A stretch of 64,000 nt of DNA, from NCBI RefSeq assembly GCF_024502345.1, contig NZ_JALDNN010000001.1; one strand, given 5' to 3'. The translations under genes were made by a program, and so were the position numbers. The first letter of the stretch is position 1; the number at the start of each line of letters is the position of its first letter. This stretch comes from Escherichia coli. Lineage in GTDB: Bacteria; Pseudomonadota; Gammaproteobacteria; Enterobacterales; Enterobacteriaceae. Shown here piece by piece: positions 11,195-52,925 of this stretch. The notes beneath the pieces were generated by a model. That model did not search any database and was not told the DNA's origin. It saw only the letters and a program-made list of their open reading frames with translations.

Positions 11195-11340
11195 GCGGGA
11201 CGCTGAAACGGGAAAGCCCCTCCCGAGGAAGGGGCCATAAATAAGGAAAGGGTCATGATGAAGATACTCATCATCGTGGTGCTCTTAGTGATTAGCTACC
11301 CAGCATACTAAGACTACCAGGGCGGGGGAAACCCCGCTCT
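11195..11340 (-). ncRNA. Sib-type antisense antitoxin RNA, copy 1 (ends approximate)
   Basis: Inferred from Sib/Ibs organisation (Sib is fully antisense to ibs); a hairpin followed by a T-rich tract on the minus strand lies near 11200-11245. Ends not determinable from sequence alone. Confidence 0.4.
11255..11311 (+). CDS. Ibs-family hydrophobic toxin peptide, 18 aa (MMKILIIVVLLVISYPAY)
   Basis: Small ORF with RBS ggaaagggtc 5 nt upstream; Ibs signature MMK + hydrophobic core + PAY end. Confidence 0.75.
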   Translation: MMKILIIVVLLVISYPAY

Positions 11341-11522
11341 ACCCTCACTCCTGAAAGTATGCCTTCACGTTCAGAATGTCAATCCGCAGGCTTTGCAGTC
11401 TGCGATCCTGCCAGCAAATATTCTTTGCGAGACGTTACGCAATAATCACAGAGGAAACTATTTTGTTCACGCGTTAGCGATAGACTGAATTCAGGGCGAA
11501 AGGAGGTAAGCCGACGATTTCA

Positions 11523-11668
11523 GCGGGACGCTGAAACGGGAAAGCCCCTCCCGAGGAAGGGGCCTTAAATAAGGAAAGGGTCATGATGAAGTGGATCATC
11601 ATCGTGGTGCTCTTAGTCATAAGCTTCCCGGCTTACTAAGACTACCAGGGCGGGGGAAACCCCGCTCT
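11523..11668 (-). ncRNA. Sib-type antisense antitoxin RNA, copy 2 (ends approximate)
   Basis: Same reasoning as copy 1, shifted by one repeat unit. Confidence 0.4.
11583..11639 (+). CDS. Ibs-family hydrophobic toxin peptide, 18 aa (MMKWIIIVVLLVISFPAY)
   Basis: Second repeat unit, same RBS context; Trp at position 4. Confidence 0.75.
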   Translation: MMKWIIIVVLLVISFPAY

Positions 11669-11850
11669 ACCCTCACTCCTGAAAGTATGCCTTCACGATA
11701 AGATTGTCAATCTGCAGGCTTTGCAGTCTGCGATCCTGCCAGCAAATATTCTTTGCGAGACGTTACGCAATAATCACACTGGAAACTATTTTATCCGCAA
11801 GTCAGCGATAGACTGCATGCATGGCGAAAGGAGGTAAGCCGACGATTTCA

Positions 11851-11996
11851 GCGGGATGCTGAAACGGGAAAGCCCCTCCCGAGGAAGGGGCCTTAAATAA
11901 GAAAAGGGTTATGATGAAGCACGTCATCATACTGGTGATACTCTTAGTGATTAGCTTCCAGGCTTACTAAGAACACCAGGGGGAGGGGAAACCTCT
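11851..11996 (-). ncRNA. Sib-type antisense antitoxin RNA, copy 3 (ends approximate)
   Basis: Same reasoning as copy 1. Confidence 0.4.
11911..11970 (+). CDS. Ibs-family hydrophobic toxin peptide, 19 aa (MMKHVIILVILLVISFQAY)
   Basis: Third repeat unit; closest to the K-12 IbsA sequence as I recall it. Confidence 0.75.
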   Translation: MMKHVIILVILLVISFQAY

Positions 11997-12189
11997 CCCT
12001 AACCCTCACTCCTGAAATTATGTCACTCCGCCCTTAGTGTCAATCGACGGCTCTCCGTTCTTGCGAGGCGAATAGCAAAATTTTCTGCGCCGCCGGGACT
12101 AATTCTGAAAGTTTCTTCGTTTGCTCTTATTTCATTATTGCAGTCGGTATGATACCGGACCTCAATAATTCTCTAAGAAAGGATTTCTT

Positions 12190-27139: not shown

Positions 27140-27180
27140 TCAGTGTATTGGTAGCTAAAAAGCCAGGGGCGGTAGCGTGT
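27140..27180 (+). promoter_or_regulatory. JUMPstart element with ops site (GGCGGTAGCGTG at 27168..27179) in the wza leader
   Basis: ggtagctaaaaagccaggggcggtagcgtg matches the JUMPstart/ops (RfaH recruitment) consensus; lies about 180 bp upstream of wza. Confidence 0.85.
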
Positions 27181-31134: not shown

Positions 31135-31170
31135 CGTAGGCCGGATAAGGCGCTCACGCCGCATCCGGCA
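31135..31170. repeat. REP element between wzc and wcaA
   Basis: gtaggccggataaggcgctcacgccgcatccggca. Confidence 0.75.
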
Positions 31171-41517: not shown

Positions 41518-41520
41518 ACG

Positions 41521-41640
<120 letters not shown>

Positions 41641-41709
41641 TAAATAACGACAAAAACAAAATTGGCCGTTTCGGTCAGGGCCAACTATTGCCTGAAAAAG
41701 GGTAACGAC

Positions 41710-43080
41710 ATGAAAAAATTAACCTGCTTTAAAGCCTATGATATTCGCGGGAAATTAGGCGATGAACTGAATGAAGATATCGCCTGGCGCATTGGTCGCG
41801 CCTATGGCGAATTTCTCAAACCGAAAACCATTGTGTTAGGCGGTGATGTCCGTCTCACCAGCGAAACCTTAAAACTGGCGCTGGCAAAAGGTTTACAGGA
41901 TGCGGGCGTTGACGTGCTGGATATCGGTATGTCCGGCACCGAAGAGATCTATTTCGCCACGTTCCATCTCGGCGTGGATGGCGGCATTGAAGTCACCGCC
42001 AGCCATAATCCGGTGGATTATAACGGCATGAAGCTGGTGCGCGAAGGGGCTCGCCCGATCAGCGGTGATACCGGACTGCGCGACGTCCAGCGTCTGGCTG
42101 AAGCCAACGACTTTCCTCCCGTCGATGAAACCAAACGCGGTCGCTATCAGCAAATCAACCTGCGTGACGCTTACGTTGATCACCTGTTCGGTTATATCAA
42201 TGTCAAAAACCTCACGCCGCTCAAGCTGGTGATTAACTCCGGGAACGGCGCAGCGGGTCCGGTGGTGGACGCCATTGAAGCCCGCTTTAAAGCACTCGGC
42301 GCGCCCGTGGAATTAATCAAAGTGCACAACACGCCCGACGGGAATTTCCCCAACGGTATTCCTAACCCGCTACTGCCGGAATGTCGCGACGGCACCCGCA
42401 ATGCGGTCATCAAACACGGCGCAGATATGGGCATTGCCTTTGATGGCGATTTTGACCGCTGTTTCCTGTTTGACGAAAAAGGGCAGTTTATTGAGGGCTA
42501 TTACATTGTCGGCCTGCTGGCAGAAGCATTCCTCGAAAAAAATCCCGGCGCGAAGATCATCCACGATCCACGTCTCTCCTGGAACACCGTTGATGTGGTG
42601 ACGGCCGCGGGCGGCACGCCGGTGATGTCGAAAACCGGACACGCCTTTATTAAAGAACGTATGCGCAAGGAAGACGCCATCTACGGTGGCGAAATGAGCG
42701 CTCACCATTACTTCCGCGATTTCGCTTACTGCGACAGCGGCATGATCCCATGGCTGCTGGTCGCCGAACTGGTGTGCCTGAAAGGAAAAACGCTGGGCGA
42801 ACTGGTGCGCGACCGGATGGCAGCGTTTCCGGCAAGCGGTGAGATCAACAGCAAACTGGCGCAACCCGTTGAGGCGATTAACCGCGTCGAACAGCATTTT
42901 AGCCGCGAGGCGCTGGCGGTGGATCGTACCGATGGCATCAGCATGACCTTTGCCAACTGGCGCTTTAATCTGCGCTCCTCCAACACCGAACCGGTGGTGC
43001 GGTTGAATGTGGAATCGCGCGGTGATGTGCCGCTGATGGAAGCGCGAACGCGAACTCTGCTGACGTTGCTGAACGAGTAA
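41710..43080 (+). CDS. cpsG: Phosphomannomutase (ManB)
   Basis: Start set at [17 protein letters not shown] (456 aa); the track ORF is extended 16 codons upstream. Confidence 0.95.
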
Positions 43081-43084
43081 TGTC

Positions 43085-43200
43085 ATTACTTTCCCCCTCA
43101 CCCTGACGCTCTACTGCCTGCGAAGAGAAGTGAGCACGGAACTTTCTTCTCCCCCTCGCCCCTTTGGGGAGAGGGCCGGGGTGAGGGGCGAGGCGACAAT
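43085..43200. repeat. GC-rich nested inverted repeat between cpsG and wcaJ
   Basis: ccccctcaccc (near 43093) pairs with ggggtgagggg (near 43180); inner cctcgcccc/ggggcgagg and cccctttgggg palindromes. Confidence 0.6.
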
Positions 43201-43215
43201 AGAACAGGAACAACG

Positions 43216-44610
43216 ATGACAAATCTAAAAAAGCGCGAGCGAGCGAAAACCAATGCATCGTTAATCTCTATGGTGCAACGCTTTTCAGATATCACCATCA
43301 TGTTTGCCGGACTATGGCTGGTTTGCGAAGTGAGCGGCCTGTCATTCCTCTACATGCACCTGTTGGTGGCGCTGATTACGCTGGTGGTGTTCCAGATGCT
43401 GGGCGGCATTACCGATTTTTATCGCTCATGGCGCGGTGTTCGGGCAGCGACAGAATTTGCCCTGTTGCTACAAAACTGGACCTTAAGCGTGATTTTCAGC
43501 GCCGGACTGGTGGCGTTCAACAATGATTTCGACACGCAACTGAAAATCTGGCTGGCGTGGTATGGGCTGACCAGCATCGGACTGGTGGTTTGCCGTTCAT
43601 GTATTCGCATTGGGGCGGGCTGGCTGCGTAATCATGGCTATAACAAGCGTATGGTCGCGGTGGCGGGGGATTTAGCCGCCGGACAAATGCTGATGGAGAG
43701 CTTCCGTAATCAGCCGTGGTTAGGGTTTGAAGTGGTGGGCGTTTACCACGACCCGAAACCGGGTGGCGTTTCTAACGACTGGGCGGGCAATCTGCAACAG
43801 CTGGTCGAGGATGCGAAAGCGGGCAAGATTCATAACGTCTATATCGCGATGCAAATGTGCGACGGCGCACGAGTGAAAAAACTGGTCCATCAACTGGCGG
43901 ACACCACCTGTTCGGTGCTGCTGATCCCCGACGTCTTTACCTTCAACATTCTCCATTCACGTCTCGAAGAGATGAACGGCGTTCCGGTGGTGCCGCTGTA
44001 CGATACGCCGCTTTCCGGGGTTAACCGCCTGCTAAAACGTGCGGAAGATATTGTGCTGGCGACGCTTATTCTGCTGCTGATCTCCCCGGTGCTGTGCTGT
44101 ATTGCGCTGGCGGTAAAACTCAGTTCACCAGGACCGGTTATTTTCCGCCAGACTCGCTATGGCATGGATGGCAAGCCGATCAAAGTGTGGAAGTTCCGTT
44201 CGATGAAAGTGATGGAGAACGACAAAGTCGTGACTCAGGCGACGCAGAACGATCCGCGCGTCACCAAAGTGGGGAACTTTCTGCGCCGCACCTCGCTGGA
44301 CGAATTGCCGCAGTTTATCAATGTGCTGACCGGGGGGATGTCGATTGTCGGGCCACGTCCACACGCGGTGGCGCATAACGAACAGTATCGCCAGCTCATT
44401 GAAGGCTACATGCTGCGCCACAAAGTGAAACCGGGCATTACCGGCTGGGCGCAGATTAATGGCTGGCGCGGCGAAACCGACACGCTGGAGAAAATGGAAA
44501 AACGCGTCGAGTTCGACCTTGAGTACATCCGCGAATGGAGCGTCTGGTTCGATATCAAAATCGTTTTCCTGACGGTATTCAAGGGCTTCGTTAACAAAGC
44601 GGCATATTGA
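43216..44610 (+). CDS. wcaJ: Undecaprenyl-phosphate glucose-1-phosphate transferase WcaJ
   Basis: 464-aa ORF, polyprenyl-phosphate hexose-1-P transferase family (C-terminal PGITGWAQINGWRGET). Confidence 0.95.
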   Translation: MTNLKKRERAKTNASLISMVQRFSDITIMFAGLWLVCEVSGLSFLYMHLLVALITLVVFQMLGGITDFYRSWRGVRAATEFALLLQNWTLSVIFSAGLVAFNNDFDTQLKIWLAWYGLTSIGLVVCRSCIRIGAGWLRNHGYNKRMVAVAGDLAAGQMLMESFRNQPWLGFEVVGVYHDPKPGGVSNDWAGNLQQLVEDAKAGKIHNVYIAMQMCDGARVKKLVHQLADTTCSVLLIPDVFTFNILHSRLEEMNGVPVVPLYDTPLSGVNRLLKRAEDIVLATLILLLISPVLCCIALAVKLSSPGPVIFRQTRYGMDGKPIKVWKFRSMKVMENDKVVTQATQNDPRVTKVGNFLRRTSLDELPQFINVLTGGMSIVGPRPHAVAHNEQYRQLIEGYMLRHKVKPGITGWAQINGWRGETDTLEKMEKRVEFDLEYIREWSVWFDIKIVFLTVFKGFVNKAAY

Positions 44611-46094: not shown

Positions 46095-46440
46095 TTGTTT
46101 TCGGTTTCGGCAATGGTTGCCGGATGCGGCGTAAAACGCCTTATCCATCCTACGGTTCTGTGCTCGGGACCTGTAGGCCTGATAAGACGCGTCAGCGTCG
46201 CATCAGGCACTGAATGCCGGATGCGGCGTGAACGCCTTATCCGGCCTACGGTTCTGTGCTCGGGTCTTGTAGGCCTGATAAGACGCGCCAGCGTCGCATC
46301 AGGCACTGAATGCCGGATGCGGCGTGAACGCCTTATCCATCCTACGGTTCTGTGCTTGGATCTTGTAGGCCTGATAAGACGCGCCAGCGTCGCATCAGGC
46401 AAAAAACGGCAACGAACACAACAAACACAGCCTCACCTGG
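46095..46440. repeat. REP array (BIME cluster) between wzxC and wcaK
   Basis: Six alternating units of gccggatgcggcgtgaacgccttatcc...cctacg and gtaggcctgataagacgcg(c/t)cagcgtcgcatcaggc. Confidence 0.85.
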
Positions 46441-52653: not shown

Positions 52654-52886
52654 TGAAAATCTGACCGAATGTAACGGTTGATAAGACAAATTATAACGGC
52701 AGTGAAGATTCCTGTGGGGAGTAATTTGTTGCGATTACCACTGTCGTTATTCAACTATAAGCATAAAAAAGTTAAATATAATTTGGGGATTTTAAGTATA
52801 TGGAAACGCCTTTGTCTACTGAATAAGTAAAGTATTAACTGTAAGAAAAGCGTGAATGGTGTTCCCTACATAATTTAAAGATATTC

Positions 52887-52925
52887 AGTCTACTGGTAGC
52901 TGTTAAGCCAGGGGCGGTAGCGTGG
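52887..52925 (+). promoter_or_regulatory. JUMPstart element with ops site (GGCGGTAGCGTG at 52913..52924) upstream of the O-antigen cluster
   Basis: cagtctactggtagctgttaagccaggggcggtagcgtg matches the 39-bp JUMPstart consensus closely. Confidence 0.9.

Follow-up and report, generated by a model that had tools for sequence, protein, structure and literature searches.

The nested inverted repeat between cpsG and wcaJ in the Escherichia coli colanic acid operon is almost certainly a pair of BoxC repeats

The cpsG–wcaJ spacer and its surroundings

The window (i.e. the whole 64-kb stretch of DNA that was analysed) contains the colanic acid (cps/wca) cluster of E. coli, followed by an O-antigen cluster of the O112ab type (52.9-61 kb). 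Within the former, the intercistronic spacer between cpsG and wcaJ runs from 43081 to 43215 on the plus strand and measures 135 nt, as delimited by the list of open reading frames and the sequence, with the TAA stop codon of cpsG (43078-43080) on one side and the ATG of wcaJ (43216-43218) on the other. The RefSeq annotation of strain S43, which is 99.9% identical to the window over the region tested, agrees with these bounds. A sequence-only reading of this DNA had drawn attention to a nested GC-rich inverted repeat in this spacer, and both the length that it gave for the spacer and the tracts that it quoted are confirmed: a C-rich tract (CCCCCTCACCC) lies at 43093-43103 and a G-rich tract (GGGGTGAGGGG) at 43178-43188. 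A repeat search returned a long-range inverted repeat of 19 nt (43094-43112 and 43170-43188; 84% complementary and 57 nt apart), as well as two inner ones (43152-43162 with 43178-43188, and 43154-43163 with 43184-43193). Allowing for at most one mismatch, the G-rich tract occurs three times in the 64 kb, compared to 0.57 times expected, and all three occurrences are within the cpsG–wcaJ spacer.

The spacer is located about 16 kb downstream of the JUMPstart/ops leader of the cps operon (27141-27179, plus strand; Rfam RF01707, 57.3 bits; ops sequence GGCGGTAGCGTG at 27168) and belongs to the same transcription unit. This leader, upstream of wza, is one of two JUMPstart/ops elements on the plus strand of the window, the other (52886-52924) being found upstream of the O-antigen genes that follow galF. 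The annotation of the near-identical strain S43 (L084) lists three genes of its O-antigen cluster, i.e. wzx, wzy and one for an epimerase, as incomplete pseudogenes. At a larger distance, on the minus strand at 11240-12043, three SIB RNA (Sib antitoxin) genes are arranged in tandem with a period of 328 nt (each 140-146 bits in Rfam), at a locus where K-12 has two copies (sibA and sibB).

The other sizeable spacers of the cps operon hold REP/BIME elements, i.e. those of wzc–wcaA (31136), cpsB–cpsG (41539-41620) and wzxC–wcaK (46109-46400). The wzc–wcaA spacer carries a single REP on the minus strand (31136-31169, one mismatch to the consensus) and, since this REP adds to the others, a palindromic repeat is present in every sizeable intercistronic gap of the operon. 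The cpsB–cpsG spacer (41518-41709) is 192 nt long here, versus 104 nt in K-12; its extra segment (about 41519-41628) consists of two REPs (a BIME), for which the wzxC–wcaK BIMEs are the only aligning sequences in K-12, and is a second strain-polymorphic palindromic insertion in the cps operon. The wzxC–wcaK spacer consists of three tandem BIME units of 96 nt, two of which are matched on the minus strand by the Rfam family naRNA4 (RF02564); the K-12 spacer is 96 nt shorter, which implies that it has two units. Directly upstream of the start of cpsG (41710), the algC RNA motif (Rfam RF02929) is found at 41656-41705 on the plus strand, with 78.2 bits versus a gathering threshold of 33.8. This motif is a curated cis-regulatory candidate and, among the RNA elements of the operon, has a firmer basis than the cpsG–wcaJ spacer.

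Identity of the element

With up to three mismatches, the REP consensus (GCCGGATGCGGCG...CCGGCCTAC) matches the window at 31136, 41539, 46216 and 46312 and has no match within 43081-43215, which bears out the earlier remark that the element is not a canonical REP. The ERIC core, for which the ERIC1R and ERIC2 primer sequences were used, has no match in the 64-kb window at up to three mismatches either. A scan of the whole window at the Rfam gathering thresholds placed no family within the cpsG–wcaJ spacer, and in E-value mode the region 42500-43800 returned only chance-level matches (E = 2.5 to 8) to unrelated eukaryotic or archaeal families.

A profile (nhmmer) made from the 22 published K-12 BoxC sequences (Petrillo 2008, PMC2267715) has a single significant match in the 64 kb, at 43189-43150 (E = 3.3e-11, model positions 4-43 of 51), i.e. 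an intact BoxC at 43150-43189 that has its published C-rich orientation on the minus strand. BoxC is the same as the PIT (potential intrastrand triplex) elements of the Maher laboratory and as the TMECO triplex motif (Holder 2015, PMC4666352). Its consensus layout of three G/C blocks of ~10 nt with 3-nt loops in between is found at 43153-43188 on the plus strand, in the form of a type B TMECO/PIT motif with one mismatch (CCCTCGCCCC-TTT-GGGGAGAGGG-CCG-GGGTGAGGGG), of which the G-rich blocks are on the sense strand of the operon. This 36-mer is identical (36/36) to TMECO no. 3 of K-12 and TMECO no. 391 of O26:H11 (Holder 2015, PMC4666352).

The position of the orthologous copy in O26:H11 strain 11368 (L091) was predicted from its cpsG–wcaJ locus, as NC_013361 2875141-2875106, and was then located in the published table, where these are the coordinates of TMECO no. 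391 (Supplementary Table S8; Holder 2015, PMC4666352). The spacer of that strain is 99.3% identical to the one in the window and has TMECO no. 391 inside it. The element is, in other words, already catalogued at the orthologous cpsG–wcaJ locus and not only a member of the family, even if the names wcaJ, cpsG and manB are absent from the supplement of Holder 2015, in which the locus was recovered by coordinates. The best match of the spacer in K-12 is upstream of yagE, and its reverse complement is 'eco:2_BoxC' of the PMC2267715 collection.

Following these results, it seems virtually certain that the cpsG–wcaJ spacer contains an inverted pair of BoxC (PIT, TMECO) repeats. The sequence-only reading had itself named a widespread known repeat family as something that would count against its proposal, and both the E value of the profile match and the exact 36-nt identity put the element in such a family. 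That the GC-rich palindrome arose by chance and bears no family relationship has nothing in its favour but the general GC-richness of the tract, and practically no probability left: it is ruled out by the identity to catalogued repeats, by the E value of 3e-11 and by the z-scores of the predicted fold (-3.6 to -4.6, see below). BoxC itself is a short, GC-rich, intergenic repeat that is dispersed in enterobacterial genomes; its description dates from the 1990s, with further studies in 2000 and 2015 (Bergler 1992 and Bachellier, both via the papers citing them; Hoyne and Maher 2000; PMC2267715; PMC4666352).

The TMECOs of K-12 often occur as inverted pairs of one type A (loop TTA) and one type B (loop CCG) copy (Holder 2015, PMC4666352), and the stretch 43091-43189 would be such a BoxC pair, composed of a decayed type A copy, the usual linker and the intact type B copy at 43150-43189. 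The putative left copy (43091-43133, plus strand, C-rich orientation) is type-A-like, having a TGA loop and being colinear with full type A copies. Its match to the BoxC profile covers 43091-43112 (plus strand, model positions 2-23) and, at an E value of 0.31, is weak on its own. Its head block and loop (CCCCCTCACCC-TGA) are intact and its blocks 2 and 3 are heavily mutated (CGCTCTACTGCCTGCGAAGAGAAGTGA vs CCCTCTCCCCAAAGGGGAGAGGGGATT); position, orientation and colinearity argue that it is the decayed type A partner. The linker between the copies (43134-43149, plus strand; GCACGGAACTTTCTTC) is common to BoxC pairs elsewhere, with as its counterparts GCACGGAGC...TCTTTTC in one of the other loci (L037) and GCACCGAGCCATCTTTTC upstream of K-12 yagE, where the linker of the pair has the form GCAC(G/C)GA(A/G)C...TCTT(T/C)TC. 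In addition, the alignment of the spacer with complete A–linker–B pairs needs no gaps, both for those in the same spacer of Enterobacter, Kluyvera, Buttiauxella and Lelliottia and for the unrelated pair upstream of yagE in K-12. The nested inverted repeats can be explained by this pair anatomy, with the head blocks (CCCCTCACCC and GGGTGAGGGG) giving the long-range stem, while the inner palindrome results from the internal blocks of the intact copy.

With the published BoxC/PIT/TMECO family the element has in common the 36-nt sequence, the Y-R-R three-block layout, the 3-nt loops, the CCG loop of type B and the single mismatch, as well as the intergenic position, the multiple copies, the probable inverted A+B pairing and the presence or absence among strains with collapse to a hairpin; apart from the heavy decay of its putative type A partner, nothing essential is different. 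Its setting here is the inside of a long operon, on the sense strand and with a ribosome-binding site 17 nt further downstream. REP/BIME (PU) elements are likewise GC-rich imperfect palindromes that colonise intercistronic gaps, including the neighbouring ones in the cps operon, and what they are known to do, i.e. to protect mRNA 3' ends and to cause attenuation, is akin to the role that the earlier reading had imagined. However, they have no sequence similarity to the element in the spacer, and tests of BoxC for terminator activity have been reported as negative. REPs owe their mobility to RAYT transposases. The A–linker–B pair is a unit of roughly 100 nt with terminal inverted repeats that recurs at unrelated loci and that is seen in either orientation in other genera, and in this it also resembles MITE-like repeats (ERIC/IRU, Correia/NEMIS, RUP), from which it differs by the absence of a match to the ERIC core and of an evident target-site duplication at its ends. 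To our knowledge, the pair has no cognate transposase, and for BoxC in general we know of neither a mobilising enzyme nor a demonstrated function.

Predicted RNA fold and transcription signals

As RNA, the segment 43078-43218 is predicted to adopt a structure of several nested stems at -58.5 kcal/mol (z = -3.64), matched by 1 of 200 dinucleotide-shuffled sequences, and its core (43091-43192) one at -54.6 kcal/mol (z = -4.59), matched by 0 of 200, which upholds the earlier suggestion that the spacer can form a stable RNA structure. Because of these z-scores, as well as the number of G-rich tracts relative to expectation, the structure in the spacer is considered to be real and above the level of chance. 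The minimum-free-energy structure (plus strand throughout) has an outer stem of 12 bp that corresponds to the long-range inverted repeat (5' arm 43094-43105, 3' arm 43177-43188), a middle hairpin (43125-43151, with 43125-43134 paired to 43142-43151) and an inner hairpin (43153-43175, with 43153-43162 paired to 43166-43175). The inner hairpin is made up of BoxC blocks 1 and 2, with TTT as the loop and one internal G·A mismatch, which is the 'mm' feature of the TMECO family (Holder 2015, PMC4666352). The last 20 nt of the folded segment are predicted to be unpaired, including the Shine-Dalgarno sequence of wcaJ (AGGA, 43206-43209, plus strand) and the ATG that follows it at 43216-43218; the sequence ACAGGAACAACGATG at this site is conserved across genera. 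According to PMC4666352, RNA does not form purine-motif triplexes, and the BoxC transcript should therefore adopt hairpins rather than a triplex.

The sequence-only reading had gone one step further, by proposing that the structure acts as an intra-operon attenuator or processing site. A transcription attenuator, or a dedicated RNA-processing site, that regulates wcaJ would fit with a very stable RNA structure directly upstream of this gene, and other extragenic palindromes, namely BIMEs, have been linked to transcription attenuation (Espeli 2001). However, the stems are followed by GGGGCGAGGCGACAAUAG, which contains no T/U run, and a scan for terminators and promoters gave no terminator-like or promoter-like site in the repeat (43086-43215). 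The one nearby match of the terminator scan (43061-43085), a weak stem that has 3 GC pairs, covers the cpsG stop codon, and the total of 4 matches, versus 2.8 expected from shuffles, is not an excess. Furthermore, PIT/BoxC elements reportedly act neither as promoters nor as terminators and leave RNA polymerase unaffected (Maher laboratory, as quoted by Holder 2015, PMC4666352). What the element shares with a Rho-independent terminator or attenuator is a GC-rich stem-loop in the transcript; it differs in its lack of a 3' U-tract, in its multiple stems and in being part of an operon that has an ops/JUMPstart antitermination leader. The ops element recruits RfaH, which makes RNA polymerase resistant to termination. 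Finally, the long element is absent from 89% of the genomes that have the locus (see below), all of which have an intact cps operon. Attenuation or dedicated processing is therefore considered very improbable, and the proposal is not retained.

Long and short alleles in E. coli

The spacer was compared by BLAST with 5426 complete E. coli genomes. The full 135-nt long spacer is found in 508 of these and a K-12-type short spacer of 54 nt in 4130, which together are all 4638 genomes that have the locus (~11% versus 89%). The short form, as present in K-12, O157:H7 and BL21, contains a simple 10-bp hairpin (CCCTTACCCC-ACTGC-GGGTAAGGG). Compared to K-12, the long allele differs only over 43085-43202. 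Along the cps cluster as a whole, divergence from K-12 is uniform at 2-4%, with no local peak that would indicate an imported block around the spacer. The BoxC part of the spacer (roughly 43134-43190) was matched in 4610 of the 5426 genomes; per genome, BLAST detected a median of 6 such places, and never more than 15. Recurrence of the element elsewhere in the genome, as had been raised earlier, is thus found at the level of whole E. coli genomes, in which it is dispersed, but not within the 64 kb, where the profile has no significant match outside the spacer. Among the matches listed, there is no annotated feature under the BoxC matches, and the copy in the window is located between two coding sequences.

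In eight diverse strains the long allele is 97.8-100% conserved while its flanks differ by up to 3%, and the changes among these alleles are only single and non-compensatory; alleles this similar leave little room for covariation to show. The outer stem is weakened in strain E69 by the loss of 7 nt and by an A-to-C substitution (z = -1.4), and this variant argues against a strong constraint on the long-range pairing. TMECO loci in general have been found to undergo elevated small intergenic changes and to be more variable between strains than control loci, and inverted A+B pairs are described to collapse to hairpins, the 'palindrome effect' (Holder 2015, PMC4666352). Judging from the alleles compared here, the long/short polymorphism would match this published behaviour. 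BoxC pairs would then be unstable as DNA, being able to expand as well as to collapse to simple hairpins, and it is this instability from which the long/short polymorphism would result.

It could also be that the element acts through its structure as DNA, with the G-rich non-template strand forming an intrastrand triplex or a G-quadruplex that stalls polymerases and drives the instability. A type B mm oligonucleotide, which is of the identical sequence type, forms a stable triplex with a Tm of about 70 °C, and TMECO loci are, as mentioned, more variable than control loci (Holder 2015, PMC4666352); in the spacer itself, four G-runs (43166-43188) fit the pattern of a G-quadruplex, and the cpsG–wcaJ locus is polymorphic. 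On the other hand, neither in vivo DMS footprinting nor CD/NMR of duplexes pointed to a triplex in chromosomal or double-stranded DNA, a G-quadruplex of the oligonucleotide was excluded by NMR, and the formation of purine-motif triplexes is stated not to extend to RNA (PMC4666352). The conservation of the long allele (97.8-100%) on flanks that diverge by up to 3% also means that it is not rapidly decaying. A role as a DNA structure is therefore considered unlikely.

The same junction in other Enterobacteriaceae

WcaJ loci were collected with one genome per species, and 76 of these loci yielded a cpsG–wcaJ spacer, ranging in length from 39 to 357 nt. BoxC (E < 1e-5) is present in 30 of the 76 spacers, distributed over 14 of the 26 genus-level groups, and 19 spacers have an inverted BoxC pair, with both the A–B and the B–A order being seen. 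The remaining spacers mostly have one short hairpin with a C-rich and a G-rich arm, such as CCCCTCTCCC-GAC-GGGGGAGGGG in Leclercia or the hairpin of Escherichia, Salmonella and Citrobacter. The z-score of the fold is below -2 in 62 of the 76 species (median -3.1), while in some lineages (e.g. L027, L079, L006 and L011) the structure is weak or absent. The end of the hairpin is always shortly upstream of the conserved, unpaired Shine-Dalgarno sequence.

Pairing was counted in the 14 Escherichia, Salmonella and Citrobacter sequences, since the MAFFT alignment of all 30 short spacers was structurally inconsistent on the 3' arm. In these 14 sequences the 10-bp stem is 97.8% paired, versus 44-66% when the partner columns are slid, and double compensatory changes are found at three pairs: A-U to G-C (7 sequences), C-G to U-A (3) and U-A to C-G (1). 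The loops of these hairpins vary freely. The sense strand of the spacer is predicted to fold more stably than the antisense strand in 51 species versus 22 (Wilcoxon p = 5e-4), which would be a candidate sign of constraint at the RNA level; per genus the ratio is 17:9 (sign test p = 0.17), so that the bias is not robust at this level.

In two of the spacers, those of Enterobacteriaceae UBA5654 (L054, 357 nt) and RIT714 (L028, 247 nt), parts of the BoxC pair and linker are tandemly amplified, giving three or four units of about 40-60 nt, which suggests that BoxC-derived sequence may undergo expansion as well as collapse. One record labelled Chryseobacterium sp. 18061 (L078, CACSKA010000001.1) has a WcaJ that is 81% identical to that of E. 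coli, together with an Enterobacteriaceae-type spacer and ribosome-binding site, and is probably mislabelled or contaminated.

The comparison across genera suggests that a stem-loop has been maintained at the cpsG–wcaJ junction in many Enterobacteriaceae, and its persistence suggests that it may be more than neutral junk. The literature search found no described cpsG–wcaJ stem-loop or processing site, and this cross-genus persistence goes beyond the literature searched.

Whether this persistence reflects selection has to be weighed. In that case the junction would need a stable RNA hairpin, for instance for protecting the upstream mRNA from 3'-exonucleases or for setting the level of wcaJ expression, and BoxC pairs and their collapsed derivatives would be interchangeable providers of it. 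This would account for the frequency of strongly folding spacers, for the presence of BoxC in 14 of the 26 genus-level groups with short hairpins in most of the other spacers, for the compensated 10-bp stem with its free loops and for the constant position of the hairpin just before the Shine-Dalgarno sequence. However, palindromes can persist through template-switch correction at the level of DNA, and BoxC copies in decay are palindromes in any case; the sense-strand bias does not hold per genus, some lineages have little or no structure, and the E69 variant degrades the fold. Selection on such a hairpin is thus a possibility to be reckoned with, without being the probable state of affairs. 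Its most general form, in which selection maintains an RNA stem-loop across the whole of the Enterobacteriaceae at the junction of wcaJ with the sugar-nucleotide genes cpsB and cpsG, with BoxC pairs, single long palindromes and short hairpins as interconvertible embodiments, is more tentative still and should be regarded as doubtful.

Proposed behaviour of the BoxC pair

Overall, the best explanation of the spacer, namely a BoxC pair that would be co-transcribed and would serve as passive punctuation, is considered likely, and most economically the pair would be just another of the extragenic palindromic repeats that occupy intercistronic gaps. The pair would be transcribed as part of the cps mRNA, in which it would fold into a stable multi-stem structure that leaves the ribosome-binding site of wcaJ free. 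It stands where 89% of E. coli carry a plain 10-bp hairpin and, like that short hairpin, would act only as passive intercistronic punctuation, i.e. as a barrier to 3'-exonucleases or as an insulator of the wcaJ start. In its full detail (a co-transcribed stable fold and passive punctuation, being neither a terminator nor a regulated attenuator, encoded by a pair that tends to collapse as DNA), this behaviour has a chance that we would put at just under even. A mild role at the RNA level, such as mRNA punctuation or a barrier to decay, may exist, as the stem-loop has been kept in most Enterobacteriaceae with compensatory changes.

Conclusions

The repeat between cpsG and wcaJ is an ordinary and already known one, not a new regulatory element, and for annotation such spacers are better labelled as BoxC repeats than as candidate riboregulators. 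The locus does provide a clean natural example of polymorphism between a long pair and a collapsed hairpin (11% versus 89% of 4638 E. coli genomes), and this polymorphism is situated inside an operon that is essential for function. The persistence of a stem-loop across genera, often in the form of a BoxC pair, is the only part that might repay further work, with the junction being held by BoxC pairs or compensated hairpins in at least 14 genus-level groups. If this occupancy reflects selection, it would amount to a first concrete local role for BoxC, in the punctuation of mRNA. In the case of a maintained stem-loop, BoxC would be the evolutionary source of a functional intercistronic hairpin, or would have been co-opted as one, and it would be this hairpin that determines how stable, or how strongly expressed, the two halves of the colanic acid mRNA are relative to each other.
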